Origin: an uncultured Pseudomonadales bacterium
GTDB lineage: Bacteria > Patescibacteriota > Microgenomatia > UBA1400 > CAYNFZ01
Direction of reading: 5' to 3'
Length of the DNA stretch: 46,925 nucleotides
Assembly: GCA_964398525.1 (NCBI GenBank)
Contig: CAYNMS010000008.1
Span: forward strand, 1 to 46,925
Part shown: positions 372 to 16,409 of the stretch, one piece after another
How positions within the stretch are numbered: position 1 is the first letter of the stretch
How the letters are laid out: every line of letters begins with the position of its first letter
The notes under the pieces: model-generated
Seen by the model: only the letters and a program-made list of their open reading frames with translations
Database searches by the model: none
What the model was told of the DNA's origin: nothing
Program-made: the position numbers and the translations under genes

Positions 372-372
372 A

Positions 373-1167
373 TTAACCACCAAGAGCGGAGTAAAGGCGA
401 ATGCCACTGCGCCAGAGAATAAGCGAAATCAGAGTAAAGGTGGAGATCCAGAAAAGTTGAATAGTAAAGCCGTGGAGAATTTGAGAGTTAGACAGGGTGC
501 CTAGTAATAGCTCTAAGGGGAAAGAGACTAGGTAGCGAAAAGGCAAGAGAAAAGCAATTTGCTGAAGCGGGGTGGGAAACAAGAAAATGGGGGCAACTCG
601 ACCACCCAGGGTGTAGTCGGCGATATCGTTTAAGTTTAAAAGAGAGGAGACATCATCCATCCAAAAAGCAAGAAGACCAATGATGGTTTCCAGGAGGAAA
701 CTTAGAATAGCAGAAAAAACTAAGGCAAAGAAAAATTGGATAAGAAGAGCGGGGCTTAGGTTTAGCTTGAGAGTAAAAAGCCAATGGGAAATAAAGATAA
801 AGGGTAGGATAAAAAAGATTTTTAAAAATTTTTCGGCAAGATTGTTGGAAATAGAATCAATAAAGGGGAAAACTGGTCGAAGTAGACGAAGACTAAATTT
901 TCCGGTACGGATTTCTTGAGCCATAAAGATTCCGTGCCAAGAGCCGATGAGTACGGAAGTGAGAGGAATTAGACTGTAGTAGTTGATGAGGGGTTGGAGC
1001 TGGGAAGTGACAGAGGCAGAAGATTTAGCAATGGCAAACCAGACTAAGAGATTGGTAAAAGGAAAGGCAAAAGTTTCAAACATCCAGATGAAGATCATGC
1101 CCCGATAGGCAACAGTTTCTTGGAGTTGAACAGTGAAGAATTTTTGTAATAGCTTGAATGACTTCAT
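373..1167 (-). CDS. ABC-2 family transporter permease
   Basis: 264 aa polytopic membrane protein resembling ABC-2/DUF990-type permeases. It is paired with a second permease directly downstream. Confidence 0.65.
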   Translation of the reverse strand: MKSFKLLQKFFTVQLQETVAYRGMIFIWMFETFAFPFTNLLVWFAIAKSSASVTSQLQPLINYYSLIPLTSVLIGSWHGIFMAQEIRTGKFSLRLLRPVFPFIDSISNNLAEKFLKIFFILPFIFISHWLFTLKLNLSPALLIQFFFALVFSAILSFLLETIIGLLAFWMDDVSSLLNLNDIADYTLGGRVAPIFLFPTPLQQIAFLLPFRYLVSFPLELLLGTLSNSQILHGFTIQLFWISTFTLISLILWRSGIRLYSALGG

Positions 1168-1198
1168 GAGAGGATTTTAGCAAAACCCAGATAAGTAA

Positions 1199-1221
1199 AA
1201 GCCGCTCTTAACGAGCGGCTT
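1199..1221 (-). terminator. Hairpin downstream of hup (AAGCCGCTC-GTTAA-GAGCGGCTT, then TTTAC)
   Basis: 9-bp inverted repeat seen 24 nt after the hup stop. The T tract is weak. Confidence 0.45.
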
Positions 1222-1244
1222 AAATAACAAGTGGTAAAAAAGTT

Positions 1245-1520
1245 TTACCAAACGATTTTCTTTAGTGGTTTACCAACACGGAAATTAACGACGCGGTGAG
1301 ATTTAACTGTTTGACGCTTGGTCTCCTGGCCAAAGGGAACAACTTCTTTGTCGCGAACTTTGCTTAAGTAAAAAGTGCCAAAACCGGAAAGAACTACCTT
1401 TTCACCTTTTTTGAGAGAACGTTTGATCTCATCTAAGAAAATGTCCACCGATTCGGTGGCAGCTTTTTTGGTTAGGTGGCCCTTTTTGGCAACAACATCT
1501 ATTAATTGAGACTTGGTCAT
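1245..1520 (-). CDS. hup: HU family DNA-binding protein
   Basis: 91 aa. MTKSQLIDVVA...SGFGTFY...RVVNFRVGKPLK matches the HU/IHF fold signature. Confidence 0.9.
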   Translation of the reverse strand: MTKSQLIDVVAKKGHLTKKAATESVDIFLDEIKRSLKKGEKVVLSGFGTFYLSKVRDKEVVPFGQETKRQTVKSHRVVNFRVGKPLKKIVW

Positions 1521-1641
1521 GGATTACCCCTTTTGTCACTAAAATTTGGCTATGTATCCACTTTAGTAACCAAAAAGGTTAGTGTCAATGGGTAAAGTGT
1601 CGGAATTAGGTAAGAATTGGAATCGCCAGAGTTGAAGTTTA

Positions 1642-3192
1642 TTATTTAGCAACTTCTTGGGCTCGAGTTTCACGAATGACAGTGACGGTAACCGTACCCG
1701 GATAGGTCATTTCGTTTCTGATGCGCTCTTTGATATCAAAGGCCATCTTTCTAACGGCTTCATCGTCAACTTTTTGGGGTTTGACGACAACACGGACTTC
1801 ACGGCCGGCTTGAAGAGCATAGGCTTCATCGACACCTTCATAGGAAGTAGCGATTTCTTCGAGTTTGTTGAGACGTTTGACGTATTCGTTATAGTTTTCA
1901 TATCGAGCACCGGGGCGGGCACCAGATATGGCATCGGCGACATAGACGAGAACGGCTTCCGAAGAAGAAAAGGGTTTGTCTTCATGGTGTTGCTCGACGC
2001 AGTCGATGACATCTTGCGGGATGTTGAATCTTTTGAGGAAATTAACCCCAAGCTCGACGTGACTGCCTTCTTCGTCGTGGATGACTTTACCGATGTCATG
2101 CAAAAGACAACCAAGGCGGACAATATCGGCATCAGCACCGACTTCTCTGGCGAGGGCGATACCTATTTTGGTTTCTTCTAAAGTATGGGTAATCATGTTC
2201 TGGCCATAGGAGAAGCGGTATTTAAATTCACCAAGCTTGGCCACAATTTCGCGAGGCAGATTGTAAACACCAACTGCGTGACAAAGCTTTTTACCCTCTT
2301 CAAACATGATTTTTTCGATGTCTTGACGGGCTTTGGCGACATACTCTTCGATGCGGGTAGGTTGGATACGCCCATCGGCAACTAGTCGTGAGAGGGAGAC
2401 TTTGGCGATTTCGCGGCGAACCGGATCGAAACTACTTAAGCGGACTTCACCGGGTGTTTCATCGAGATCGACGTCAACTCCGGTAGCCTGTTCAAAAGCA
2501 CGAATGTTGCGACCTTCTTTACCGATAATTCTCCCTTTACTGTCTTCTTGAGGAAGTTTAACGGTTGAGACGGTGTATTCGGCGACATGGTCGGTGGCTC
2601 CGTGTTTCAGAGCGTCGACAATAATCTCCCGGGCTTTATTGTCGGCTTCTTCTTTGGCTTTATCCTCGGCAGCGGTGATGGCTTTGGCCATGTCGACTTG
2701 TAGCCTTTTTTCGAGAGTGTTGAAGATGATTTGTTTGGCTTCTTCTTTATTGAGACCAGCGATTTCTTGAACCCGATCGGCATAGCGTTTTTTGAGTTTG
2801 TTTAACTCATCGAGCCTGACTTGAAGCGTATCTTGTTGTTCTTTGAGAAAACGTTCCCGGGCTTCGGTGGCAGCTTGGACACGGGCAAGATCGGTTTCTT
2901 TGCGGGAAAGATCAAGCTGTTTTTGGTTGAATTCGTTTTGACGGCGACGAGATTCTTCTTCAGCTTGTGATCGGATTTTGAGCGCTTGGTCTTTGGCTTC
3001 GAGAATTATTTCTCTAGATTTAGCCTCGGCTTCCCTTTTGGCCTGATTTAAAAGGGCTTGATGATCGATCTGGGGTTGGGGACGAGAAGGACGGTGACGG
3101 GGTTTACTGCGGCGTGGCGGTTTGGAGGGAGTGGTAATAACTGGTTTTTTCCCAGGTTGAAATACTCCTGAAAGAGTTTTGAAAAGTGACAT
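1642..3192 (-). CDS. rny: Ribonuclease Y
   Basis: 516 aa with a coiled-coil region, a KH motif (GRIIGKEGRNIRAFEQATGVDV) and an HD domain (LLHDIGK...EQHHE). Confidence 0.9.
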   Translation of the reverse strand: MSLFKTLSGVFQPGKKPVITTPSKPPRRSKPRHRPSRPQPQIDHQALLNQAKREAEAKSREIILEAKDQALKIRSQAEEESRRRQNEFNQKQLDLSRKETDLARVQAATEARERFLKEQQDTLQVRLDELNKLKKRYADRVQEIAGLNKEEAKQIIFNTLEKRLQVDMAKAITAAEDKAKEEADNKAREIIVDALKHGATDHVAEYTVSTVKLPQEDSKGRIIGKEGRNIRAFEQATGVDVDLDETPGEVRLSSFDPVRREIAKVSLSRLVADGRIQPTRIEEYVAKARQDIEKIMFEEGKKLCHAVGVYNLPREIVAKLGEFKYRFSYGQNMITHTLEETKIGIALAREVGADADIVRLGCLLHDIGKVIHDEEGSHVELGVNFLKRFNIPQDVIDCVEQHHEDKPFSSSEAVLVYVADAISGARPGARYENYNEYVKRLNKLEEIATSYEGVDEAYALQAGREVRVVVKPQKVDDEAVRKMAFDIKERIRNEMTYPGTVTVTVIRETRAQEVAK

Positions 3193-3372
3193 GATACCTT
3201 CCTAACGGAATATACATTAAATTCCAATGCTGGATATTGATATTTGATTGGAGATACAAACAGTCAACAAAAAAACGCAAATCAGGAGTGAGCGAGGTTA
3301 AACAGTTTGCGGGTAAATCATTAAAAACAAAAGTTACTTAATAGGTTAACTATCTGAATCTCTCGGGATATT

Positions 3373-3846
3373 TTACTCTTGGGCTAACCATTCGTCAATC
3401 GCAGCGGAGATGACAGAAGCGGTATAGCCCCTCTGGTAAAGGTAATTCTTGGCCTTGGCTTTGGTCTTGAAAAGGTTGGACTGTTTGAGCTTTGAAGCCC
3501 GTTTTTCAAGAAGCTTGACTGCGGAGGCAATTAGCTTGGATTGATCGGCGTTATTTAGATTTTGTAAGATAATTGGGTCCTCCACTCCAAGAAACTTTAG
3601 TTTTTGGCGAATAAAAGTAATTCCCTTGCCTTTGGAGATATAGCTGGTGACAAGTTGCGAGGCAAAAGCCTGATCATCCAAAAGCCCCATAGATTCAAGA
3701 TCGGCAACGATAGCGTCAATCTGGTCGGCTTGGGTGGTTTTGGAGCTTAAATACCGCTTCATTTCAGAGATGGAGCGGGAGCGGAATTTTAGATACCCGA
3801 CGGCCAGGTTAAGCAGTCTGGCTCTTGGGTTGGGATTGTTTGGCAT
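3373..3846 (-). CDS. recX: Recombination regulator RecX
   Basis: 157 aa with a RecX-like N-terminus ([19 protein letters not shown]), immediately downstream of recA. Confidence 0.8.
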
Positions 3847-4882
3847 GAATTTTTTCCCGAACCTTTTTCTCGATTTCTTCCATGAGCTTGGGCTTTTCCT
3901 CTAAGACAGCTTTGGCCCCTTCGCGGCCTTGAGCTAAAACTTCACCTTGGTACTTAAAGAAACTACCGGATTTTTCGATAACATCATGTTCGACGGCAAC
4001 GTCGACTATACCGCCAGATTTGGAAATGCCAGAGACGTTCATGATGTCGAATTCGGCAATTTTAAATGGTGGGGCGATTTTGTTTTTGACAACTTTGGCC
4101 CGGTGACGTGAGCCGACGATTTCGTCGCCATCTTGAATGTTGCCGATTTTACGCATATCGATTCTGACTGAGGCGTAGAACTTGAGAGCTTGGCCGCCAG
4201 TAGTAGTTTCGGGATTGCCAAACATAACGCCGATTTTCATACGCAGTTGGTTGGTAAAAATGACAACGGTTTTAGAGCGATTGATGGCACCGGCTAATTT
4301 GCGCATAGCTTGACTCATGAGCCGAGCCTGAAGACCGATAATGGAATCCCCCATCTCGCCTTCGATTTCAGCTTTGGGAACAAGGGCGGCGACCGAGTCG
4401 ATAACTAGGACGTCGATACCACCGGATCTGATCAGGGTTTCGGCGATTTCTAGTGCTTGCTCGCCGCTGTCAGGTTGAGACATGAGAAGACTGTCGAGAT
4501 TAACCCCGATGGCTTTGGCTCGAACAGGATCGAGGGCATGTTCGGCATCGATGAAAGCAGCGTCACCGCCTTTTTTCTGGGCTTCGGCGATGATATGAAG
4601 ACACAGGGTAGTTTTGCCGGAGGCTTCGGGTCCATAGATTTCCACGATACGGCCTCGAGGAACACCGCCGGCACCGAGGGCTAAGTCTAGGGCAAGGGAA
4701 CCGGTGGGAACGGTGGCAATATTTTTAAGAAGGGCAGCCTGATCGCCAAGACGCATAATGGAACCGGTACCGAATTGTTTTTCAATTTGTTGCATGGCAA
4801 TTTTGACGGCTTCGACACGCTGGCTATCACTGGGGTTTGGTTGTGGCATGACTACCTCTTGGTTTTTCTTAGGTCGACCCAT
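3809..4882 (-). CDS. recA: Recombinase RecA
   Basis: Walker A motif [10 protein letters not shown] plus FIDAEHALD and [15 protein letters not shown] lies upstream of the ATG at 4882. An internal ATG (MPQPNP...) is an alternative start. Confidence 0.95.
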
Positions 4883-4989
4883 ATATCTCCTTTTGGTGAT
4901 TTAGAGTAATATAAACATACTTTTCGGGTAATTACAACCAAATCTTTCTGGTTTTTATTTGGGTTTATTTCTAAGGTATAATGGGCAGA

Positions 4990-5019
4990 TTGACAAGTGA
5001 ATAGATTTGGGCGGAGAAT
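4990..5019 (+). promoter_or_regulatory. Candidate sigma70-like promoter for tRNA-Pro (TTGACA-18 nt-GAGAAT)
   Basis: Perfect -35 hexamer at 4990..4995 and a weak -10 at 5014..5019, 18 nt before the tRNA 5' end. Confidence 0.3.
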
Positions 5020-5036
5020 AAAAATCTCGGCCAAAA

Positions 5037-5107
5037 CGGGGTGTAGTATAGTGGTAGTATTTACGCATGGGGTGCGTAAGGTACAGGTTCGATTCCTGTC
5101 ACCCCGA
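5037..5107 (+). tRNA. tRNA-Pro (anticodon GGG)
   Basis: Folded by hand as a 71-nt cloverleaf: acceptor CGGGGTG/CACCCCG, anticodon stem TACGC/GCGTA, loop AT-GGG-GT with G37, T arm ACAGG-TTCGATT-CCTGT, discriminator A. C1-G72 is typical of tRNA-Pro. No CCA is encoded. Confidence 0.9.
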
Positions 5108-5611
5108 CACTTCGATTTCGCAAGGCGAATGAGAAGTGAGCTGAGCCTGCTGAAGCTCTGAACTATTTGAAGAGCCGAAGCTCATCTCACTAGCTTTGCT
5201 TCACTCAGTGTCTTCGACTCTTTGTTTTCGATTTTTGCTCAGGGTGTACGATGTTTCAACAAGCTCAACATCTTTGACCAATTATTGAATGAGTCGAAGA
5301 GCCTCGAGCGAAACGGGGTGAAGCCTAGAGGCACAGATATTGACTCCACTTAGAGTCTACCCCCTTTCTTATTTTGATTCGGTGGCTTGAGAAGTTGCAA
5401 CTTAGATTAGATTAAATCTATGTATGGCAATTGTGTGATTGGTTTAAATGTTTGCGCTAGCAATAAATATTGACAGAATTATCTCTCTCTTTAAGCTGAA
5501 AAGGAATCGGTCTCAAATTGTCTGTATTTGGTCTGTGATTTTGGGTAACACTTAACTACAGTGAAATATTCCCATGTTGAGAAGCTAGAAAAATCTAATT
5601 TGAGGATAAAT

Positions 5612-5620
5612 TGATATAAT
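5612..5620 (+). promoter_or_regulatory. Extended -10 element TGATATAAT overlapping the first ATG of the 216-aa ORF
   Basis: TGn+TATAAT read directly in the sequence. If it is used, the real start codon would be the ATG at 5640. Confidence 0.3.
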
Positions 5621-6269
5621 GCTTGTCCTAATTTTTGATATGGAAAAAAAATTAAAATTAAATTTGGGGGAAGTTGGATTCCCCCATGCTCATAGATTTA
5701 CTTCCTCTACTGGAATACCTGTACCTTGGAAGGGCTGTGATGGGGTCATTCTTCCCAGACTGATTATTTTTGAAGAGCCAGGAAGTGATTATGACATTCA
5801 TCATGAAATTTACTCAGAAAGAGTTAGGAACTGTAATGGAGAAATTTATTATGGTGATATCTATAAGCCGGAGTCTTTAGAGGAAATTCCACAAATGGGA
5901 CTGCTAGTTCTTGAGAATGTGGTTACAGATCCAGGACAAATCCAGAAAGATTGGTATGGCTTAATTAGATTTTTGGACTCTAAGATAGCACCTGGTGGAC
6001 TTGTATTATTTTCTGATCATATTTATCCTGGATCCTTATATCTTGGGGTTCCCCATGAGGAAATTAGAAAAGAAGTAAGTCAAAGTGACTCATTTGAGGT
6101 ATTGTATTTTGATCCACTGGAAAAGGGGACAGTTGAAGATCACACAAGAGCTCTGAATAATTGTAAAGAAATACTCAATTCTTTGGGCATGATGGATCAA
6201 GCACTCGATTCAGGACTTGATGAATTGCATAAAGTTAATTGGCATTGGTTGATATTGCAGAAAAAGTAG
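5619..6269 (+). CDS. Hypothetical protein (orphan) with weak class I methyltransferase-like motifs
   Basis: 216-aa ORF. IIFEEPGSDYD, LLVLENVV and KIAPGGLVLFSD resemble SAM-methyltransferase motifs I, IV and post-IV. This is motif-level resemblance only. Confidence 0.5.
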   Translation: MLVLIFDMEKKLKLNLGEVGFPHAHRFTSSTGIPVPWKGCDGVILPRLIIFEEPGSDYDIHHEIYSERVRNCNGEIYYGDIYKPESLEEIPQMGLLVLENVVTDPGQIQKDWYGLIRFLDSKIAPGGLVLFSDHIYPGSLYLGVPHEEIRKEVSQSDSFEVLYFDPLEKGTVEDHTRALNNCKEILNSLGMMDQALDSGLDELHKVNWHWLILQKK

Positions 6270-6292
6270 GCATTACTTTCCTTAATAATAAC

Positions 6293-6361
6293 CGACAAGA
6301 GTTTCTCCTGAGGGGATTTTTGATGTCCTTATACAAAAGTAGAATCTCTTGAGAAATCTGG
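6293..6361. repeat. Island repeat type C, copy 1
   Basis: 47 of 69 positions identical to 7041..7109 in an ungapped hand alignment. Shared blocks are AGGGGATTTTTG, AAGTAG and CTCTTGAG. Confidence 0.7.
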
Positions 6362-6364
6362 TTA

Positions 6365-6640
6365 TTACTTGTTCTTAAATTCTCGATCCACGCTTTGACT
6401 CAGAAACATTTTCATCAGAGATTGGTACGGCACATCTTTTTTATTAGCAAGTTGTTTAATTCTCATCAACAAATGAGACGGCAACCTTAAGGAAATAGAT
6501 TCTGTTGAAGGTTTTAAGTTTGATAAGTCTAATTCTACTGACTTTGACCAATCAACATAATCAGTTGAATCATGAGTTGCCCAAAACTCTCGCTCTTCAT
6601 CTTCGTTTTTGAATTGTGGAATTGGTTTAAGCTTTGTCAT
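6365..6640 (-). CDS. brnA: BrnA-type antitoxin (CopG/RHH-like)
   Basis: 91 aa. FKNEDEEREFWATHDSTDYVDW followed by a C-terminal RHH-like segment. Overlaps brnT by 14 nt. Confidence 0.8.
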   Translation of the reverse strand: MTKLKPIPQFKNEDEEREFWATHDSTDYVDWSKSVELDLSNLKPSTESISLRLPSHLLMRIKQLANKKDVPYQSLMKMFLSQSVDREFKNK

Positions 6641-6920
6641 AGATATTTTTCTCCTTTTTATTCATATCTCTTATGGAGATAATCCTAATTTTATTACTTC
6701 TGATTGTATATGAGACAAATAATTTACGATTATCATTTGTTTCCCCAAGAGCTTGAAAGCGCAATTCCTTTCCTGAGTGCTTTTCATCTAATACTGAAAG
6801 AAAAGGCTTATTAAAGAAAACTTCTTCAGCTTCCTTTGCGTCTACTTTATGTTTCTGCCAGTTTTTATCTTTGTTTCCAGTATCCCATTCAAAAGTAATT
6901 GGCCTCGGTAATTTCTTCAT
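6627..6920 (-). CDS. brnT: BrnT-type ribonuclease toxin (DUF497)
   Basis: FEWDTGNKDKNWQKHKVDAKEAEEVF signature. Start trimmed to MKKLPRP at 6920, because the track's upstream extension to 6983 runs through the non-coding repeat also found at 10218..10266. Confidence 0.8.
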   Translation of the reverse strand: MKKLPRPITFEWDTGNKDKNWQKHKVDAKEAEEVFFNKPFLSVLDEKHSGKELRFQALGETNDNRKLFVSYTIRSNKIRIISIRDMNKKEKNIYDKA

Positions 6921-6966
6921 TGCATTTAGTATATTATGATAATATACTGATGTCAATTTGCTATAG

Positions 6967-7016
6967 TTCCGAATTAAACACAAAGGTTCTACTTTAGTCC
7001 TACGCTAAGGCTTCGG
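6967..7016. repeat. Island repeat type A, copy 1
   Basis: Aligns with 10218..10266. The core AAAGGTTCTACTTTAGTCCTACGCT is identical over 25 nt (6982..7006 versus 10232..10256). Confidence 0.85.
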
Positions 7017-7040
7017 AATTACACAGTCGGTCACAATATT

Positions 7041-7109
7041 CGACTCATGATTCTCTCCAGGGGATTTTTGGAACTATTGTACATAAGTAGGACCTCTTGA
7101 GGGATCCAG
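7041..7109. repeat. Island repeat type C, copy 2
   Basis: See 6293..6361. It contains AAGTAGGACCT (7085..7095), whose reverse complement matches 10 of 11 positions of AGGTTCTACTT (6984..6994). Confidence 0.7.
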
Positions 7110-7133
7110 CGACATTTCTGATAATATCAATAT

Positions 7134-8276
7134 ATGTCAGATTCAAGCGAAGGTGTGCCCGCATCCTTAAGAGATAAAATTGTTAGAAGTATTGATGGTC
7201 AAAAGCCAAGCTGGAAAAATGTTTTGTCAAGAAAAGTTGTTGGACGAAGAAGTTCAGTAGATAGTTACCCTGAAAAGATCGAGGAGATACCTGCTACGGC
7301 ACCAGCTCAAGAGCAGTCAACTTCGACTGAAATTAACTTTTCTCCCATAATAGAGTACTTTTATGAGCTAGGGAAAAAGCCGTTAGTCTCCCTAGAGAAA
7401 ATGATTGGTATTCCTGAGGGAAGTCGTTCACAAGGCAATGTTATTGCTAATTTAGTGGCTAATAATTGTTTTGAGGAAGAGACGGAAACAAGCTTTATTG
7501 AACAAGGTTTAGATGGTCACCTAATTGGTGTGGGAGCTGCAAGCATTTTCTGTATGATTGAAGGATTTAGTGAATGTCAATCATTTACCGGTATTGATGT
7601 TCATCCTAGCCCCGTTGCTATTGGAAGAGTTATTACTGAATTACTGGGTGAGAATGACACCTTTGAAGATTTTTTTACTTCGTTAAGTGACGAAGACAAG
7701 CTCAAAGACAAACTAGAAGAGATGGGTTTACCAGAGGGATATTTTGATGAAACTGCACAGAGTGTTAAAGATGCAATTACTCAATACAATAAAGTCAAAA
7801 GCAGCTACCCAGGAATGCGAGCAGAGGGATTTAATGTTCACAATATGGACAAGAAAAATCTCTTTCCACTCAAGTCTATAGAGAGGCATTATAAAGAATT
7901 CATGAACTTAGCTAGATCAGGCAATATGCATTTTATCCAGGCAGATTTCCTTGATTCAACTGTATGGAGGGGCTTAAATCGAGCCGCTCCACAAATAAAA
8001 GATGCTAATAATTTAATATTTTGCAGTAATGCTATTGATCATGAATTCCGATCAAGGTTCGAGAAGTGGGACCAATGGTCTCAAAACGGAAAAGTTAATA
8101 TGGCAATCTCTGAACAAGTTGCTCTTGGAGGAGCGACTGCTTTTAACTTTGCAGATTGGGAATCCAGTAGATTCGTATTCACTTTGACAAGTCTAAGATA
8201 CGAGTTACAGCTAACAGATGAACCACCTGTTTATGGCTATGATGAACAACAAGGTCGTCCAACTCTTATTAACTAA
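7134..8276 (+). CDS. Hypothetical protein (orphan): disordered N-terminus plus divergent Rossmann/SAM-methyltransferase-like domain
   Basis: 380-aa ORF. LIGVGAASIF...FTGIDVHPSPVAI...MHFIQADFLD...NLIFCSNAIDHEF occur in the order of class I methyltransferase motifs I, II, III and IV. Confidence 0.55.
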   Translation: MSDSSEGVPASLRDKIVRSIDGQKPSWKNVLSRKVVGRRSSVDSYPEKIEEIPATAPAQEQSTSTEINFSPIIEYFYELGKKPLVSLEKMIGIPEGSRSQGNVIANLVANNCFEEETETSFIEQGLDGHLIGVGAASIFCMIEGFSECQSFTGIDVHPSPVAIGRVITELLGENDTFEDFFTSLSDEDKLKDKLEEMGLPEGYFDETAQSVKDAITQYNKVKSSYPGMRAEGFNVHNMDKKNLFPLKSIERHYKEFMNLARSGNMHFIQADFLDSTVWRGLNRAAPQIKDANNLIFCSNAIDHEFRSRFEKWDQWSQNGKVNMAISEQVALGGATAFNFADWESSRFVFTLTSLRYELQLTDEPPVYGYDEQQGRPTLIN

Positions 8277-8321
8277 AACTTATTCCCGTACTGAATTCCG
8301 AACCGGCTTGCGTATGAAGAG

Positions 8322-8383
8322 TTCTACCCCTTCGACTAACTGCGCTCGCTTAGGATCTATGACTTTCGTTCACGATATTCGAC
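8322..8383. repeat. Island repeat type B, copy 1
   Basis: 57 of 62 nt identical to 9769..9830 by hand alignment. Starts 45 nt after the stop of the 380-aa ORF. Confidence 0.9.
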
Positions 8384-8494
8384 TCAGAGAATAGATTAAG
8401 AATTCTCGATCTGGGATTTGGAAAATTTGATTTTTACCCAAATGTTGTGTGAAATTTTCATTCTTGAGGAAAGACTTTAAGAGGAGATTGGAAA

Positions 8495-9733
8495 TTGAGC
8501 CTCTTGAGGAATGTTAATTTGGCATATAATATTTTGGTGAAAACTAGATCTCTTAAAAGTAATCTTCAAGTTGCATATTTCTTATCATTTGTTAGTCAGT
8601 TATTTTTTCCAATCGCCATTTGGTTGTTTTTTTACTCCAAGTTTTTGGATTTTAAACAAATCGCTCTAATGACTGCTGTGGGAAGTATCGCCACCATACT
8701 TTTTGAAATCCCAACAGGTGCTTTTGCCGATATTGTGGGCAGGAAAAAAGCCATCGTATTATCTTATTTATTGTTTGCTGTGAGTATGTTGCTGACAGCA
8801 TATTCTCAAACTTTTATAGTCTTTGTTTTATTGGGAGTGGCGAGCGCTCTGGTTAATGCTTTGTATTCTGGAAGTCTTGAAGCACTTGTTTATGACACCT
8901 TAAAAGAGTCAGGGAGAGAAGTAGAATATGACCAAGTGATTTCTAGGATGGATGCTATCGCATGGTTGGGCCTGTTCGTGGGTTCAGTAACGGGAGGGTT
9001 TTTGTTTGCAGTTTCTTACAGATTACCTTTTTTAGCACAGGCTTTGATTACATTTCTGGCTTCTATTTTTGCACTTAAACTAAGCGAGCCTTCTATTGAT
9101 TCAGAGAAACATAAGTTGAGCGACTTTGTTGTTCAAAACACTAAGGGATTCAGAGAACTGTTTCACAGTCGAGCAACTACTAGATTGGTTATAATTTTTA
9201 TTACTATTGGTGCAGGTTATGATATTGCTGCTTCGATTCTTGGAATTTCTCAGGCAAAAGAATATGGAATTGCTCCTGAGATTGTGGGAATCATTTTTGC
9301 AGCCGGATATATCATTTCAGCATTAGCGTCTCATTTTTATCCAATGCTGAGATTAGTCTTAAATAACAAGGCAATTTTGTTGGTTGCTGTTACAGCTTTG
9401 CTTTCAAGCTTTTTGCTGGCTCAATTTGTTGGAGTTATGTTGGGAGCTGGATTAATTATTCTTCGGATTTCAAGTTCTACCTTGTTTAGAAATACTAGGT
9501 CAGTAATGCTAAATCCTTTCTTTTCTTCCAAAAATCGAGCTACCGCACTATCAACCATAAATTTGTTAACAATACTTCCCTACGCGTTGCTGGCTTATTT
9601 CATTGGAGACTATATGGATAAATCATCCCCAAATTCATTTGCTTTTCTTTTGGGCATAGGAATTGCATTTTCTCTATTGTTTACAGAAATACTTTTCTGG
9701 TTCGTTGAGAGATCAAAAAGATCTATTAATTAG
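8495..9733 (+). CDS. MFS transporter
   Basis: 412 aa with about 12 hydrophobic segments and the MFS loop motif GAFADIVGRKKA. TTG start preceded by GAGGAG. Confidence 0.85.
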   Translation: MSLLRNVNLAYNILVKTRSLKSNLQVAYFLSFVSQLFFPIAIWLFFYSKFLDFKQIALMTAVGSIATILFEIPTGAFADIVGRKKAIVLSYLLFAVSMLLTAYSQTFIVFVLLGVASALVNALYSGSLEALVYDTLKESGREVEYDQVISRMDAIAWLGLFVGSVTGGFLFAVSYRLPFLAQALITFLASIFALKLSEPSIDSEKHKLSDFVVQNTKGFRELFHSRATTRLVIIFITIGAGYDIAASILGISQAKEYGIAPEIVGIIFAAGYIISALASHFYPMLRLVLNNKAILLVAVTALLSSFLLAQFVGVMLGAGLIILRISSSTLFRNTRSVMLNPFFSSKNRATALSTINLLTILPYALLAYFIGDYMDKSSPNSFAFLLGIGIAFSLLFTEILFWFVERSKRSIN

Positions 9734-9768
9734 TTTAGTCTGGTAGACAGCCCAACTTAACTCAAATA

Positions 9769-9830
9769 TTCTACCCTTTCGACTCATTGCGCTCGCTCAG
9801 GATCTATGACTTTCGTTCACAATATTCGAC
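9769..9830. repeat. Island repeat type B, copy 2
   Basis: 57 of 62 nt identical to 8322..8383. Starts 35 nt after the MFS stop. Confidence 0.9.
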
Positions 9831-9889
9831 AGATCTCCTAAGGACTTTCAATTCTAATGCGAAATTGATAGAATCAAATCCTGACAGAC

Positions 9890-10207
9890 ATGCTTTTAGT
9901 GTATATAACCTGCGACAGTGTGGACCAAGCAAAAGGTATTGCTAATCATTTAATGGATAAGAGACTTTGTGCTTGTGTGAATATATTCCCAGAAATGCAA
10001 CCAATGTTCTTTTGGCCACCAAAGTCGGGCAAAATCGATGTGAGTAAAGAAGTGGTATTGATTGCCAAAACGGTTGAATCAAAATATCAGGAGTTGGAGA
10101 AAGAAGTGACTAAAATTCATAGTTACGAAGTGCCTTGTATCTTTGCCATTCCGGTGACCCACGTGGCCAAATCTTATTACGACTGGTTAGTTGGAGAAAT
10201 GGAATAG
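9890..10207 (+). CDS. cutA: Divalent-cation tolerance protein CutA
   Basis: 105 aa. RLCACVNIFP...FFW...VLIAKT...IHSYEVPCIFAIPV...YYDWL matches the CutA1 pattern. Confidence 0.85.
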   Translation: MLLVYITCDSVDQAKGIANHLMDKRLCACVNIFPEMQPMFFWPPKSGKIDVSKEVVLIAKTVESKYQELEKEVTKIHSYEVPCIFAIPVTHVAKSYYDWLVGEME

Positions 10208-10217
10208 GTTTCTCATC

Positions 10218-10266
10218 TTCGAACTAAACAAAAAGGTTCTACTTTAGTCCTACGCTGAAGCTTCGT
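10218..10266. repeat. Island repeat type A, copy 2
   Basis: See 6967..7016. Starts 10 nt after the cutA stop. Confidence 0.85.
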
Positions 10267-10297
10267 AAGGGCAATGCAATATCCGACCCTGTTTGAA

Positions 10298-10321
10298 ATG
10301 ACCCTAGGAAGGGTCATTTTT
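10298..10321 (+). terminator. Rho-independent terminator after cutA (ATGACCCT-AGGA-AGGGTCAT-TTTT)
   Basis: Perfect 8-bp stem, 4-nt loop and T run, read directly. Confidence 0.7.
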
Positions 10322-10467
10322 GTCTGGTACTTTCAGTTCTTTTAGAATGTGTTGTGAATTATTGCTTCTTGAGGAACTTTTTTTGAAAGGCTACTGGAAT
10401 CGAACCCTTCGAGAACACTTATCCCTAAACAATACCAAAAAGTGAAGAGAATTTTTCTGGGTTGAAA

Positions 10468-10815
10468 CTAAGTTTGTGGGTTCAACAAATGGTTCCATCC
10501 TTCTCTTTGTCTTTCGTCCAAATACAATCTGTGATAATTGCCAGCTTGAGTAACAATAAAAGGCTCGCTATCCCAAGATAGATAGAGATCCTCTTTTCTT
10601 TGTCGGGCCAAGTCTTTCATTGGTTCAACTATCAGACTAATTTGATCGCCTGCCATGACTTCCGAAACAATAGGGTCTTCTGAAGTCCCATCTCCTCTCA
10701 TTTTAATGCTTCGACCCTCTGACTCGTTAAACAGAAAATACTCTCTGTACTTAGAGTCTAATTTTTGAGTCAGTACTTGATCAATAATCCATCTTGGTGA
10801 TTCAATTGATCTCAT
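10468..10815 (-). CDS. Hypothetical protein (orphan)
   Basis: 115-aa ORF with no recognisable motif. It is the only long ORF in its region. Confidence 0.45.
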   Translation of the reverse strand: MRSIESPRWIIDQVLTQKLDSKYREYFLFNESEGRSIKMRGDGTSEDPIVSEVMAGDQISLIVEPMKDLARQRKEDLYLSWDSEPFIVTQAGNYHRLYLDERQREGWNHLLNPQT

Positions 10816-10942
10816 AAATAATTTCAGTTAAATAGTAATTGATGCATCAAAGTATATCATTCATACGTATCCAAAATCATGCTGAACTCGCCGGGTTTAT
10901 TCTGAATCAAATTATCAAATAAGGTCTTCTTTCATACACTAG

Positions 10943-11155
10943 CCTAGACAAAACAAGTCTGCTATTAGGCCTTTATTTATTTGGTTTCGCGGGCCTGAGA
11001 TAATTGAAAAAAGTTCTCCTAACTCAATTGCTTTTTTATTAGGTGCGGATATAGTGTTTGCTTTAATGCTAGAAAACGTAGTTTTCTGGTTTATTAGCAG
11101 AACTAGGAAGATTTCTAAATTGCTTGATAGATTGAAGATAATGGGTATGTTGTGA
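10943..11155 (+). pseudogene. 3' remnant of an MFS transporter paralog
   Basis: Hand translation gives ...EKSSPNSIAFLLGADIVFALMLENVVFWFISRTRKISK...*. This aligns with the C-terminus of the 8495..9733 protein (DKSSPNSFAFLLGIGIAFSLLFTEILFWFVERSKRSIN), 16 of 35 identical. There is a TAG upstream at 10940 and no start or N-terminal domains. Confidence 0.65.
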
Positions 11156-11241
11156 ATGAATTTTAAATGTTTGGATGTAAGGCAAAGGCTGAGACTAGAC
11201 CTGCAAACTAGAAAAAATTTATTTTGTGTAAAATGATGTAG

Positions 11242-11988
11242 ATGAAGATTACACTTTTACAGTGGAATGTGTGGACAAAGGAAAAGCCAGAAAAGGTGGT
11301 AAGTTTGATCAGATCCGTTGACCCTGATATTGCTTGTTTGCAAGAACTTACGATTAGACCTAAATCAAGTGGTTTGTTGGATGTGCCCGAGTTTTTGGCA
11401 AATGAACTGGAATATAAACACCACTACATCACTGCCCATGAGTGGCAAACTGATGCGGGACCTAAAAAGCAGGGAAATGGGATATTTTCGAGATTTGCAA
11501 TTGAGAATAAAAGACACAAATTTGTTCAAGTACCGTCTAAGGAAATTTCGAGAGATTATTCAGACGAAGGCAGAGTGTTGGTGAAGGGAGATATACTATT
11601 AGATAAAAAGAGAATAACGGTAGTAACAACTCATTTGTCATATACAGACAGATTTGTTGAGAATGAGAAAAAATTGACAGAAGAGGAAAACCTAATTAGA
11701 GAGTTGAAAACAATTAAGGGAAAGTTGATTTTTGCAGGAGATTTAAATACGACAGAGAATTCTTACTTGGTAAGACAATTGGATCAACTGATGGTTTCAG
11801 CCGGACCAGACTATGGCAACAAAACTTGGACCACCAAACCATTTGAATATATGGGGTTTGTGGAAGATAAGTTGGCATGGAGACTTGATTATGTGTTTGT
11901 CAGCAAAGACATAAAAGTACTTAAGAGTAAAATAATTGATACTAACTTTTCGGACCACTTGCCGATTTTGGTGGAAGTGGAGATTTAG
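11242..11988 (+). CDS. Endonuclease/exonuclease/phosphatase (EEP) family protein
   Basis: 248 aa. LLQWNVW...DIACLQE...GDLN...SDHLPILVEV are EEP catalytic motifs. Confidence 0.85.
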   Translation: MKITLLQWNVWTKEKPEKVVSLIRSVDPDIACLQELTIRPKSSGLLDVPEFLANELEYKHHYITAHEWQTDAGPKKQGNGIFSRFAIENKRHKFVQVPSKEISRDYSDEGRVLVKGDILLDKKRITVVTTHLSYTDRFVENEKKLTEEENLIRELKTIKGKLIFAGDLNTTENSYLVRQLDQLMVSAGPDYGNKTWTTKPFEYMGFVEDKLAWRLDYVFVSKDIKVLKSKIIDTNFSDHLPILVEVEI

Positions 11989-12026
11989 GTATCATTAATT
12001 TAAATTTGGAGTGATATACTGGCCAT

Positions 12027-12467
12027 ATGAAAATTGGGGTGGATTTTGTGGGGGTGAGTACGTCATTTTACTGTAATGATGGTAGGGGTAATTACTTATT
12101 GCATAAGCGAGGTAAGAATTGCAGGGATGAAGTCGGAAAATGGGATCCGGGTGGTGGAAAGTTGGAGTTTGGACTAACACTAGAGGAAAATGTCTTGAAA
12201 GAAGTAAGAGAGGAATACGGATGTGAAGGAACAATTCAAAGAAAATTGCCTGCATATAACTTGATAAGAATAAAAGGGAATCTTGAAACTCATTGGGTAG
12301 TGATTCCTTTTTTAGTGCTGGTTAAGAAAAGCGAGGTAAGGAATAATGAACCGGAAAAAATTGAAGAAATGGGATGGTTTAGGATAAATGAACTGCCAGA
12401 GCCGTTACATCCCGGAATTTTCTATACTTTAAAACACAATAAAGAGTATTTGTTGGATCAGAGTTAA
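12027..12467 (+). CDS. NUDIX hydrolase
   Basis: Nudix box GGGKLEFGLTLEENVLKEVREEYG. Confidence 0.85.
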   Translation: MKIGVDFVGVSTSFYCNDGRGNYLLHKRGKNCRDEVGKWDPGGGKLEFGLTLEENVLKEVREEYGCEGTIQRKLPAYNLIRIKGNLETHWVVIPFLVLVKKSEVRNNEPEKIEEMGWFRINELPEPLHPGIFYTLKHNKEYLLDQS

Positions 12468-12491
12468 AGAAGGTCATGAAATGAGGATTAG

Positions 12492-12926
12492 ATGAAAATT
12501 TCTAAAGCACTGGTGGCGCCAATTAACAATGAAGGACAGATTCTGTTGCAGGATAGGGAAGGGTTTTTGCCTCCGCCGTGGGGATATTTTGGGGGATCTG
12601 TAGAAAAAGGAGAAACGACAATAGAGGCAGCTATTAGAGAAATTGAAGAAGAGTTGGGAGTGAAGTTGAAAACCGGAGATTTGATGGAGGTAGGTAAATT
12701 TGTAGCCAGACTTGAAGGTGGAAAAGAGATTGTGAACTTTGTATATATTTGGAGGATTAACCATAAGCTTGATGAATTGAAGTTAAATGAGGGAAAAGCG
12801 ATGAAATATGTAAGTTTTGATGAGGCAAAGAGGTTACTCACATTTGGAGCGGATAAAGAGATTTTGGAGGCGGTGAAAAAGATGGTGGGATCAAAAAAAG
12901 ATAAATTGCCAGAGGATTCGATCTAG
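12492..12926 (+). CDS. NUDIX hydrolase
   Basis: Nudix box GGSVEKGETTIEAAIREIEEELG. Confidence 0.85.
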   Translation: MKISKALVAPINNEGQILLQDREGFLPPPWGYFGGSVEKGETTIEAAIREIEEELGVKLKTGDLMEVGKFVARLEGGKEIVNFVYIWRINHKLDELKLNEGKAMKYVSFDEAKRLLTFGADKEILEAVKKMVGSKKDKLPEDSI

Positions 12927-13019
12927 CTGTCAGGTGAGAAGTAGATAAACTGAGAGTGAATTATCTTTGCGTTTTTATTACACTGTTGAGGAGATCAATA
13001 AGTAGTACAGGAGGAAGAC

Positions 13020-13241
13020 ATGAAGCTTCCAAAAAATATTTTGTTACTGTTGGCCGGACTCATGCTGTTGGCAGGATGTAATACGGTACCATCTGAAGAG
13101 ATGAATACCGAAACCGGAATAGAAACACAACAGGATCAAACTCAAGAAGTCGATTGGCAAACTATGGAAGAAGAGCAATATCAGGATGATATGGAAGCAG
13201 AACAAATGGAAAGCGAAGACGAAGTAATGATGGAACAGTAG
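13020..13241 (+). CDS. Small acidic Met/Glu/Asp/Gln-rich lipoprotein
   Basis: Signal peptide with lipobox LLAGC. The mature part is about 50 aa and strongly acidic. Confidence 0.6.
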   Translation: MKLPKNILLLLAGLMLLAGCNTVPSEEMNTETGIETQQDQTQEVDWQTMEEEQYQDDMEAEQMESEDEVMMEQ

Positions 13242-13276
13242 GAAACATTAGGTATTAGGATACAGGGGATAGTAAG

Positions 13277-14965
13277 ATGTTACTGGTCGGGTTTGCCTTT
13301 ATTGCAGGATTGGTAACGGTACTGTCCCCTTGTATTTTACCGATATTACCGCTAGTACTGTCAGTCTCGGTAGGAGAGGGTAAAAGAAGACCTTGGGGGG
13401 TAGTGGTAGGTTTTGTGGCAAGTTTTGTATTTTTTACACTGTTTTTGGCAAGTTTAGTAAAGTGGTTTGGGATATCGGCTGATGTGTTAAGGCATGTATC
13501 TGTTGTTATGATCGGGTTATTTGGTATGTCGCTATTGATACCAAAGACTCAGGTAATTCTGGAAAGTTTGTTTAGTAGTCTGAGCAAATATATTCCTAAA
13601 AAACAGAGACAAGGTTTTGGGGGAGGAGTGTTACTTGGGATATCTTTAGGACTGATTTGGACTCCGTGTGTGGGGCCAATTTTGGCTTCGGTAATTGCGC
13701 TGGCATTGACGGGGACTGTGTCTGGAATAGCGGTGGTGATTACACTGGCTTATGCAACTGGAACAGCAATTCCGATGCTTTTGATCATGTATGGGAGTAA
13801 AGGTTTGATGGCAAAGATGCCTGTTTTAAGACAGAATTCAGCAAAAATTCAAAAAGTGTTTGGAATAGTAATGATAGGGGTGGCGGTGGCAATTTTTTTG
13901 GGCTGGGATAGACAGTTTCAAACTTGGATATTGGATAGATTTCCGGGCTATGGAACGGGTCTGACGGCAATTGAGGACAATGAGTTGGTCAAAAATCAGT
14001 TGGAATCATTGAGTGGAGAAGGTCTAGAAGGGGGTTTGCTATTTGAAATTCAAGAGGCAATGAATTATCCAGTAGCACCGGAATTGGTGGGTGGAACGGG
14101 TTGGATTAATTCTGAACCACTAAAAATTCATGAAGAGTTGAAGGGAAAGGTGGTGTTGGTAGATTTTTGGACCTATTCGTGTATCAACTGTATTCGGACA
14201 CTACCGTATTTGACTCAATGGTATGAAAAATACAAAGATGAAGGCTTGGTAATTGTGGGAGTGCATGCACCTGAATTTGAGTTTGAAAAAGAGCGGGAAA
14301 ATGTGATTGAAGCCATGAAAGATTTTGGGGTTTTGTATCCAGTGGTTCAAGATAATGAATTTAGGATTTGGAGAGCTTACGAAAACCGCTATTGGCCAGC
14401 AAAATATCTAATCGATAAACAAGGAAGAATTGTGTACACCCATTTTGGTGAAGGTGCATATCAAGAAACTGAGGAAAAGATTGTGGAACTTTTGGGAGCA
14501 GAGGTAGAGATAGCGGTTGAGCTGGATGAGAAAAAGAGAAAACAGACTCCAGAAATATATTTGGGGTTTGGGAGAGCTCAAGATTATGTGGCAGAGTTGA
14601 GGATAGCTGAGAATGAGGTGGCAGAGTATAGTTTTTTGGAGACCAGATCGGATGAAGTGGGGCTAAGAGGCAAGTGGAGAGTGGAGGAAGAAAGAATAAT
14701 AGCCGAAGAAAACGGGGCAGAATTGGAACTGAATTTCTTAGGTCAACAGGTGTATTTAGTAATGAAAACCAGGGAAAATGAGGGTGAAGTGGAAGTGTGG
14801 TTAGATGGAGAGCGGGTTTTAGAGACTGGTGATACACAAGATGGAGTAATTAAAGTAGAAAAGCCGAGAAAGTATGATGTGGCGGAAAGTGATTATGGGC
14901 GTCACCAGCTGAGATTGGTGTTTGATGAAGGGGTGAGTGCTTACGCGTTTACTTTTGGAAGTTAG
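13277..14965 (+). CDS. DipZ-like protein: CcdA/DsbD transmembrane domain fused to a thioredoxin-like domain
   Basis: N-terminal multi-TM region with Cys in TM1 and TM4 (LSPCILP, WTPCVGP). Periplasmic redoxin domain with WTYSCINC. A C-terminal beta-rich domain follows. Confidence 0.8.
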   Translation: MLLVGFAFIAGLVTVLSPCILPILPLVLSVSVGEGKRRPWGVVVGFVASFVFFTLFLASLVKWFGISADVLRHVSVVMIGLFGMSLLIPKTQVILESLFSSLSKYIPKKQRQGFGGGVLLGISLGLIWTPCVGPILASVIALALTGTVSGIAVVITLAYATGTAIPMLLIMYGSKGLMAKMPVLRQNSAKIQKVFGIVMIGVAVAIFLGWDRQFQTWILDRFPGYGTGLTAIEDNELVKNQLESLSGEGLEGGLLFEIQEAMNYPVAPELVGGTGWINSEPLKIHEELKGKVVLVDFWTYSCINCIRTLPYLTQWYEKYKDEGLVIVGVHAPEFEFEKERENVIEAMKDFGVLYPVVQDNEFRIWRAYENRYWPAKYLIDKQGRIVYTHFGEGAYQETEEKIVELLGAEVEIAVELDEKKRKQTPEIYLGFGRAQDYVAELRIAENEVAEYSFLETRSDEVGLRGKWRVEEERIIAEENGAELELNFLGQQVYLVMKTRENEGEVEVWLDGERVLETGDTQDGVIKVEKPRKYDVAESDYGRHQLRLVFDEGVSAYAFTFGS

Positions 14966-14992
14966 GTCTTTTTGGTTTGTTAAAATGTAAGG

Positions 14993-15742
14993 GTGAAAAG
15001 TGAACTAAATTGGGCAGAAAATTTGGTAAGGCAAGCGGGAGAAGTATTGATTGAATTTCGGGGAAAGAAGCTAAAAAGGAAAATCAAAGAGCATCTGAAT
15101 GATTTTGCAACTGAAGCAGATGAAAGGTCTGAGGAGTTGTTGATCAGTAGCATCTATAAAAATTTTCCCAGGGACAACATATTGGCTGAGGAGTCGGGGT
15201 GGATAAAAAATGAAGGTTTAACTCAAAGGACCTGGATCATAGATCCGTTGGATGGAACGACTAATTTTGCTGACGGGTCAGATGATTTTGGAGTGATGAT
15301 GGCTTTGGCTGAGGGAGAAAGGCTTTTGTGGGCAGTGATTTATAACCCAGTATTAGATATTTTAATGAAAGCATCGGTAGGAGATGGAGCCTGGATTAAT
15401 GGAGAAAGAGTAAATCTTAAACTAGACAAGGAAGTGACAAACCTGAAAGTACAGGCACATGATAACTTAAAAAATAAACTTGAAGCACAGGGGGTGGAAG
15501 TGGTGCCAATAATGTCGTCCGTGAGTGCTGTGTTTGAGCCATTGAGTGGAATTACGCAAGGAAGAGTGGATAACTTAGGTAAGATTTGGGATTTGGCACC
15601 ATCGGCATTAATTCTAAAAGAGGCTGGGTATAAAACCGGAGACTTTAAGGGAAATGAGTATCTTTGGAACCAAAGCCAGAATTTGTTGGCCGTGCCTGAA
15701 GGAGTACATAGGAAGATGGTGAAAATATTAAGCAAAGATTAA
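14993..15742 (+). CDS. Inositol monophosphatase family protein
   Basis: ILAEESG and WIIDPLDGTTNF motifs. GTG start. Confidence 0.85.
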   Translation: MKSELNWAENLVRQAGEVLIEFRGKKLKRKIKEHLNDFATEADERSEELLISSIYKNFPRDNILAEESGWIKNEGLTQRTWIIDPLDGTTNFADGSDDFGVMMALAEGERLLWAVIYNPVLDILMKASVGDGAWINGERVNLKLDKEVTNLKVQAHDNLKNKLEAQGVEVVPIMSSVSAVFEPLSGITQGRVDNLGKIWDLAPSALILKEAGYKTGDFKGNEYLWNQSQNLLAVPEGVHRKMVKILSKD

Positions 15743-15746
15743 GCTT

Positions 15747-16394: not shown

Positions 16395-16409
16395 ACGAAT
16401 AGCATAGAT

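Follow-up and report, generated by a model that had tools for sequence, protein, structure and literature searches.

The DNA analyzed here, contig CAYNMS010000008.1 of GenBank assembly GCA_964398525.1 (positions 1–46,925; hereafter the window), carries ∼6 kb of accessory genes immediately 3′ of a tRNA-Pro(GGG) gene. Comparison with relatives from metagenomes indicates that this island is a strain-variable array of small cassettes anchored at the tRNA, with units delimited by a repeated spacer element, X, and with insertions, deletions and replacements that end at X. As to mechanism, the reading we tentatively favor, although with less than even confidence, is that X is the recombination site of a recombinase encoded elsewhere, at which [promoter-gene-X] cassettes are exchanged site-specifically. 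The window belongs to the candidate phyla radiation (CPR; Patescibacteria); its RecA shares 68–72% identity with the RecA proteins of Candidatus Cerribacteria and unclassified patescibacterial metagenome-assembled genomes.

The left end of the array is set by the tRNA gene.

5037–5108, + strand: tRNA-Pro(GGG) (ARAGORN; Rfam tRNA, 61 bits), the fixed left anchor of the array

To its left stand recA and recX, divergently oriented from the tRNA, and the order recX-recA-tRNA-Pro(GGG) recurs in distant CPR relatives (L002 and L004). The island begins with the base after the tRNA and spans 5109–11241.

Each spacer was searched with BLAST against the whole window, and the X copies were profiled with nhmmer. 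A preliminary description of this DNA, made from the sequence and its open reading frames (ORFs), had noted a shared repeat family in almost every spacer. The searches confirmed the family and confined it to the island, with no copy elsewhere in the 47-kb window by BLAST or nhmmer. The spacers are built alike: X comes first, then a hairpin with a T-run, then a promoter-like module, Y or Z. X measures 34–80 nt and occurs in long (∼80 nt) and short (∼34 nt) forms. Its 5′ box is conserved (AAAGGTTCTAC, or GAAGAGTTCTAC in subtype b), as is its 3′ box (TCGTTCACAATATYCGAC, ending ...YCGAC). The center, of ∼40 nt, differs between two subtypes (X1/X4 versus X2/X3) and is lacking from short X; long and short forms have only the two end boxes in common. 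The island copies of X are as follows.

6267–6296, + strand: short degenerate X (..TAGGCATTACTTTCCTTAATAATAACCGAC), overlapping the ORF216 stop codon and aligning with the short X of L119 and L120
6964–7047, + strand: X1, long, the left direct repeat bounding the ORF380-MFS-CutA block
8305–8393, + strand: X2, long, subtype b, 92% identical to X3 over 62 nt (nhmmer E = 4.9e-15)
9746–9842, + strand: X3, long, subtype b (spacer BLAST, nhmmer)
10215–10299, + strand: X4, long with an internal deletion, 90% identical to X1 over 49 nt, the right bounding direct repeat

Every plus-strand island gene is followed by an X that starts 0 to ∼40 nt past its stop codon, and X likewise follows the genes that precede its copies in the related contigs L094 and L119. 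All 14 copies reported by nhmmer (E < 1e-14) have the same orientation within their own contig. In the sequence open to the profile, ∼60 kb from this lineage plus 14.5 kb from the genome of L094, copies were found only within arrays and in one orientation.

The remaining spacer parts are these.

6297–6356, + strand: Y1, a small hairpin and T-run (6304–6316) and then the box AAAGTAGAATCTCTTGAG; 72% identical to Y2
7047–7125, + strand: Y2, starting ATGATTCTCTCC, with its end box AAGTAGGACCTCTTGAGG at 7085–7102; the repeat part is 7047–7102
8441–8512, + strand: Z1, promoter-like, ending in GAGCCTCTTGAGG; similar to Z2, to L094 132–218 and to the Z of L119 (71%)
10346–10413, + strand: Z2, 74% identical to the Z copy of L094
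10296–10321, + strand: strong hairpin with T-run, intrinsic-terminator-like (10-bp stem in the centroid fold), directly after X4 and kept in L107

Y1 aligns with the Y copies of L107, L119 and L120, and includes a weak terminator-like match (TCTCCTGAGGGGA-TTTTTG at 6304–6316). The Y end box is an inverted copy of the X 5′ box, and Y and Z share the ending ...GAACCTCTTGAGR. In Y2 the box supplies a −35-like TTGAGG for ORF380, giving the promoter-like TTGAGG-17-GATAAT at 7097–7125. The octamer TTCGACTC occurs five times in the window, each time inside 5213–9785, versus 1.6 expected by chance.

Relatives were recovered only as short metagenomic contigs, in three arrangements termed forms A, B and C. 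The genes concerned are listed below.

5619–6269, + strand: ORF216, in forms A and C and not B; a 57% identical homolog lies between short X copies in L119
6365–6640, − strand: brnA (CopG_antitoxin, Pfam 1.5e-33), a toxin-antitoxin (TA) cassette with brnT, forms A and B
6627–6920, − strand: brnT (BrnT_toxin, Pfam 8.7e-26), forms A and B
7134–8276, + strand: ORF380, missing from form B
8495–9733, + strand: MFS transporter (MFS_1, Pfam 1.4e-24), missing from form B (L105, L106, L107)
9890–10207, + strand: CutA (CutA1, Pfam 6.7e-30), missing from form B
10468–10815, − strand: ORF115, forms A and B
11003–11121, + strand: decayed MFS 3′ fragment, 63% identical to 9614–9731, within the 426-bp distal spacer
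11242–11988: EEP (Pfam, by which two NUDIX genes were also identified)

Form A is that of the window; ten contigs encoding identical proteins were at least 99.94% identical to it with no indel, and represent the same population. Form B was reached through a search with RecX, which evolves fast; its one relative (89% identity) led to L091 and L092, and cluster members led to L104–L108. Form B is ∼92% identical to the window at the nucleotide level in the RNase Y-recA core. Read in the orientation of the window, its recA and tRNA-Pro are followed by an insert of ∼160 nt, a 19-nt repeat of the tRNA 3′ end (GGATTCCTGTCACCCCGAC) and a conserved leader, S0, described below. After S0 come a GIY-YIG gene, a Gp49/HTH (HigBA-like) pair, a long X, a Y and brnA/brnT, and then a single X, hairpin, Z2, ORF115 and EEP. 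Set against the window, form B has a small insert bounded by the tRNA-end copy, has GIY-YIG and HigBA where the window has ORF216, and is missing a 3.25-kb block, Y2-ORF380-X2-Z1-MFS-X3-CutA (window 7047–10219; L105, L106, L107). The brnA/brnT unit is 95.8% identical between the window and L091, and the 426-bp distal spacer is conserved in form B. Divergence between A and B is mosaic along the locus, at 92–98% identity. Both forms were present in a single metagenome, JGI 3300009868 (L104, 99.6% identical to the window, versus L091 and L106), and the 23 BrnA-carrying contigs were all of form A or B.

Form C (L119) reads HigA, short X, Z, ORF216 homolog, short X, Y; its HigA is 91% identical to that of form B. 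L094 has a 435-aa gene with Z before and X after it, a short X at the contig end (1–33) and a degenerate X after an ORF380 homolog. L120 has a short X-Y that shares 90.6% identity with the L119 copy; the inositol monophosphatase beside it is no more than 34% identical to the one in the window. The distant relatives L001–L004 have only the recA-tRNA-Pro anchor in common with the window and are too far to score cassettes. Scans of viral sequences gave only chance 18-mers and phage tRNA arrays.

The preliminary description had offered a hypervariable tRNA-linked locus with cassette-like units as one possibility, and had held that the same gene order in all relatives would speak against variability. 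Gene order was not the same: forms A, B and C differ in content, and the break points of the three arrangements coincide with X. The gene content, the mixed orientation and the two long spacers (510 and 426 bp) that it listed were all reproduced.

Junctions were placed by alignment. Alignment of the form-B contigs to the window stops at 7046 and resumes at 10220; the one X that they have there, 77 nt long, can be matched to X1 as well as to X4. In a three-way alignment this X is of X1 type, including the left flank and center lost in X4, through ..CAGTCGTTCACAATAT, and carries the X4 right flank from TGTTTG onward. With X1-type sequence on the left and the X4 flank on the right, the switch falls inside AATATYCGACYC, the last ∼12 nt of X. 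X1 and X4 share 10 of 12 bases in this zone, and a 25-nt tract of perfect X1/X4 identity lies further 5′. Homologous recombination would be expected in that identical tract, so a switch outside it favors the site-specific reading. In the first unit, forms A and B have the same right junction, ...CCGAC/A (slash at the junction) followed by Y, reached in A through ORF216 and a short X and in B through a long X. In form C, Z-ORF216-X lies between ...CCGAC/ and Y. In these alignments, all mapped right-hand junctions lie in the 3′ box of X, at or within ∼12 nt of its 3′ end. The variable unit can then be described as [Y/Z - gene(s) - X] inserted after a resident X. Form C, which has units of A and B in a new order with the same junctions, supports unit exchange.

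The modules are also better conserved than their surroundings. X, Y and Z are 71–91% identical across genomes versus 64–69% for the adjoining coding sequences, which suggests that they are either under constraint or mobile.

These results can be set against an account with no dedicated system. Island genes would then have their expression signals in common, X being a 3′ element, the hairpin a terminator and Y/Z a promoter, and these repeats would offer RecA portable homology. The genes between them would be deleted, inserted or reshuffled by unequal crossing-over, or by homologous replacement once DNA had been taken up from related strains. We consider this a substantial possibility and a close rival of site-specific exchange, though probably not what happened. 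The recA gene adjoins the island, and direct repeats with 90% identity (X1 and X4) flank the 3.25-kb indel. Expression signals are present, in the promoter-like site of Y2 and the terminator-like hairpins after X, and the mosaic A/B divergence suggests frequent homologous exchange. Homologous recombination between repeats can account for much of what was seen, and is also consistent with the lack of a recombinase in the window and in fragments of relatives. The position of the switch is harder to accommodate, since the exchange would have passed over the 25-nt identical tract for a stretch with 10 of 12 bases shared. Portable homology also leaves unexplained why long and short X keep only their end boxes in common, and why X, Y and Z are conserved above flanking genes across genomes. 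Moreover, X1 and the single X of form B have no plus-strand gene before them, and are therefore not elements of a 3′ untranslated region (UTR) there. RecA-mediated exchange fits the junction position and the conservation pattern less well than site-specific exchange does.

The tRNA end of the array begins with two features.

5109–5307, + strand: S0, a structured, conserved 200-nt leader directly 3′ of the tRNA
5308–5618, + strand: form-A-specific region upstream of ORF216, part of the first variable unit (GC 0.36), with no form-B counterpart

S0 is 96.8% identical to L091/L092, versus 92.1% for the neighboring core genes. Its consensus fold has three hairpins, of which the third (5211–5300) is closed by a 10-bp stem, TCTTCGACTC/GAGTCGAAGA. 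RNA folding gave z = −2.75 for 5100–5420 (+ strand, a segment longer than S0) and −2.06 for 5105–5312 (− strand); covariation was not seen in the S0 hairpins, in an alignment with only seven substitutions. Homology between A and B ends ∼7 nt after the third hairpin, which puts the left junction of the first unit at ∼5307. A similarity by eye between S0 5211–5280 and X of subtype b was not recovered by nhmmer. Rfam scans returned nothing but tRNA, with no family for S0, X or the 160-nt insert of form B. That insert (L091 1918–2079, also in L092) contains two GC-rich hairpins, CCCCGCTAAGCGGGG and GTCAGCTTAGCTGAC, with no Rfam match and no similarity elsewhere. Just past the first variable junction, 5316–5338 (AACGGGGTGAAGCCTAGAGGCAC) is weakly similar to the tRNA-Pro 5′ end (AACGGGGTGTAGTATAGTGGTAG), with p = 0.008 in local alignment before correction for 10 tests, and could be a decayed partial tRNA.

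Composition changes abruptly at the tRNA. The preliminary description had called the island AT-rich and proposed a compositional break, and both claims held on measurement: GC is 0.370 at 5109–11241, versus 0.445 at 1–5036 and 0.472 at 16395–46925. GC at third codon positions (GC3) is 0.29–0.35 in island genes (0.415 in CutA), versus 0.49 in recA and 0.42–0.50 in ribosomal and rpo genes. The break is sharp on the tRNA side (GC3 0.49 to 0.29) and gradual on the distal side, where the EEP/NUDIX/DsbD block (11242–16394) has GC 0.40 and GC3 0.35–0.40.

Such an edge raises the alternative that integrases inserted successive elements at tRNA-Pro, by accretion of the tycheposon type or of the type seen in cis-mobilizable elements (CIMEs), and that these then decayed, X being a degenerate attachment-site remnant whose integrases were lost. 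The location directly at the tRNA 3′ end, the sharp break there, the 19-nt direct repeat of the tRNA-Pro 3′ end kept in form B (where it bounds only a tiny insert, not the island), and the presence of ORF380 homologs beside tRNA-Gly(CCC) in other genomes all speak for it. There is also a precedent, as streamlined Prochlorococcus genomes have tRNA-seeded islands with scattered partial tRNAs and degenerate elements (bioRxiv 10.1101/2020.12.28.424599). We nonetheless judge it unlikely. X was rejected as a tRNA-Pro remnant: its local alignments to tRNA-Pro were not significant against shuffled sequence (p = 0.10–0.99), the tRNA covariance model was blind to X, and Rfam found nothing on X1 alone. 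No further copy of the tRNA 3′ end was found in the window at up to 3 mismatches. The units are single genes, and domain searches found no integrase remnant in the island or in the fragments of relatives. None of the contigs L094, L119 and L120, which carry X, shows a tRNA.

The pairing of X with Y suggests a further alternative, that X-Y is a small non-autonomous repeat, of the kind of miniature inverted-repeat transposable elements (MITEs), repetitive extragenic palindromic (REP) sequences or Correia elements, that has colonized an ordinary variable region, with indels as side effects. In L119 and L120 the 5′ box of X and the end box of Y make up a perfect inverted repeat of 12 bp (AGGTTCTACTTT/AAAGTAGAACCT); the one at window 6983–7100 is near-perfect. 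The L119 composite folds significantly (z = −2.3 and −3.8 for its two strands), long and short variants exist, and the 90.6% identical copies stand in different genomic contexts. This explanation seems to us quite improbable. The composite folds of the window, L107 and L120 were not significant, and X1+Y2 pairs its two ends with z of only −0.95. No target-site duplication was visible at the flanks of the copies inspected by eye. The copies share one orientation and are clustered, with none in the remaining ∼41 kb of the window or in the core portion of L105; most X (X2, X3, X4 and the single X of form B) have no Y partner; and the indel junction is at the X end, not at the ends of an X-Y element.

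The case for X as a recombination site is built from the switch position, the conservation of end boxes alone, the strict polarity, the conservation of modules across genomes and the tRNA-end duplication of form B. Conservation of only the ends between long and short X is as expected of a site, and not of decaying duplications. The second, 19-nt copy of the tRNA-Pro 3′ end, a direct repeat that form B has ∼160 nt past the tRNA, shows that the anchor has undergone integrase-type events. Under site-specific exchange, each unit would consist of a promoter-like Y or Z, one gene or TA pair, and X, and such [Y/Z-gene-X] units or blocks of them would be inserted after, or excised from, a resident X. 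The enzyme would be a site-specific recombinase whose gene lies at another place in the genome, with Xer or another host tyrosine recombinase as the obvious candidate. As its fixed entry end, the array would have the 3′ end of tRNA-Pro together with the conserved S0, and Y/Z would give every unit its own promoter, so that units could work in either orientation. A fuller version is possible but on balance doubtful: an undescribed patescibacterial cassette-exchange system with integron logic, capturing and releasing cassettes at the 3′ box of a resident X, with tRNA-Pro/S0 as the primary site. In that version the recombinase would again be encoded elsewhere and be possibly of the host Xer type, the sites would not be attC-like hairpins, and no IntI would be involved. 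We regard a new site-specific cassette system as plausible but unproven.

Several results tell against site-specific exchange at X. The argument from the switch position fails if the event came first and the internal deletion of X4 later. The X 3′ box has only weak dyad symmetry (TCG..N11..CGA), single-stranded DNA (ssDNA) folds of X1–X4 on both strands were no more stable than shuffles (z from −1.9 to +2.0), and X with its hairpin and T-run also resembles a plain module of 3′ UTR plus terminator. The left junction of the first unit (∼5307) is not at an obvious X 3′ box. Domain searches found no recombinase, integrase or transposase among the ORFs of the window or in an extra 2.9 kb upstream (seen in L081), which bears out the preliminary description on this point for the window, and none was found in all the relative fragments recovered, which are short metagenomic contigs. 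The short contigs recovered yielded only three arrangements, and no excision product was seen among them. The ten near-identical form-A contigs, and the restriction of the 23 BrnA-carrying contigs to forms A and B, show that turnover is slow.

Some further properties of the island genes were noted. ORF216, ORF380 and ORF115 had zero matches in Pfam, NCBIfam, PADLOC, PHROGs and PDB sequences, and AlphaFold models of ORF380 and ORF216 (pLDDT, the predicted local distance difference test, 40 and 54) were too poor to use. The brnA/brnT unit has a promoter-like site, TTGACA-17-TATACT, at 6956–6928 (− strand). ORF380 homologs (51–64% identity) occur in unrelated contexts; in other genomes they adjoin, or lie 2.3 kb from, tRNA-Gly(CCC) (L096 117–190; L093 7613–7684), making this an orphan gene repeatedly linked to tRNA genes. 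CutA homologs of the same 90% cluster are also found in other contexts (DUF5680-CutA-EamA), with nucleotide homology limited to the coding sequence. One of this cluster, on the 76-kb contig L100 (JGI 3300025150), is in a region dense in defense genes: a DNA methylase, a HATPase_c_3 protein, RhuM, KilA-N, a Type ISP restriction-modification enzyme and an OLD-like nuclease.

A second variable spot was seen just outside the island, where in form B a segment of ∼880 nt (L105 7058–7938, versus window 12878–13190) stands in for a 73-aa ORF and for the second NUDIX gene's 3′ end. Its small ORFs, for an HTH_19 protein of 66 aa and for products of 120 and 82 aa, resemble a TA module, and there is no X at the junction. 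The rest of the window encodes RNase Y, HU, ABC2 permeases, RNase HII, pyruvate kinase and a ribosomal/rpoBC super-operon. Upstream of window position 1, in L081/L109, six tandem paralogs of a PF06182 ABC-2 type permease lie to the left of HU/RNase Y. GC skew of the plus strand is positive throughout the window (1–46925; 0.0–0.5) and its cumulative curve rises monotonically, while the ribosomal super-operon and rpoBC (18.8–46.6 kb) are on the minus strand; these highly expressed genes therefore have a C-rich coding strand. Ribosomal protein S5 (26162–26878, − strand) ends in a C-terminal tail of ∼70 aa of KTQP/KPQP repeats, coded by a 12-nt tandem repeat at 26190–26388.

CPR genomes are ∼1 Mb in size and have few recognised mobile elements. 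To our knowledge there are no genetic tools for these bacteria, and their gain and loss of accessory genes is largely unexplained. The locus described here offers a concrete unit of gene flux, with a site of 34–80 nt marking the 3′ end of accessory genes and whole-unit differences at X between close relatives, including strains from one metagenome sample. If X is a recombination site, cassette systems would have evolved a second time, independently of integrons, and X would also give a way to insert genes into CPR genomes. Should X prove to be only expression signals or portable homology, the locus still reveals a small flexible tRNA-linked region in a streamlined genome.

Among known systems, the one called to mind by the preliminary description was the sedentary integron, or the cluster of attC sites lacking integron-integrases (CALIN). 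The likeness stood as far as the logic goes: mostly single-gene units, each ending in a conserved element of 35–100 nt that varies in length and has conserved ends, one polarity, reversed TA pairs, and strains that differ in units with junctions at the site 3′ end. It did not extend to the machinery. There is no IntI, and an attC reading of X was rejected: as the preliminary description had said of the canonical RYYYAAC/GTTRRRY cores, no such pair is present in any island spacer (regular-expression search), and the ssDNA folds given above are not significant. Only two pairs occur in the island, both spanning mainly coding sequence. The junction is in the middle of the spacer element rather than at a hairpin base, units carry their own promoter-like modules, the array begins at a tRNA instead of attI/Pc, and the host belongs to the CPR. 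That the island is a true integron cassette array without its integrase is therefore very improbable.

Correia, REP, bacterial interspersed mosaic (BIME), enterobacterial repetitive intergenic consensus (ERIC) and MITE elements are like X-Y in its 12-bp inverted ends, length variants, promoter- and terminator-like signals and intergenic location. They are unlike it in that here there is no target-site duplication, a single orientation, one cluster, and no inverted partner for most X. Tycheposon islands, and CIMEs with the related integrative and conjugative elements (ICEs), share with our island the position 3′ of a tRNA, the small genome, the distinct composition, the variation between co-occurring strains and, in form B, a partial tRNA repeat. 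They differ in that our island has no integrase remnant, its internal repeats are not tRNA-derived, and its single-gene units come with a dedicated repeat family.

Modules bounded by pdif (XerC/XerD) sites on Acinetobacter plasmids are small, often consist of TA pairs or transporters between short bounding sites, and have no recombinase of their own. The pdif sites are 28 bp long, dif-like and alternating in orientation; X by contrast measures 34–80 nt and occurs only as direct repeats, which does not fit pdif modules, and no dif-like 11-6-11 structure is recognised in it. A host recombinase acting in trans, as on the pdif modules, would explain why none is encoded beside this array.

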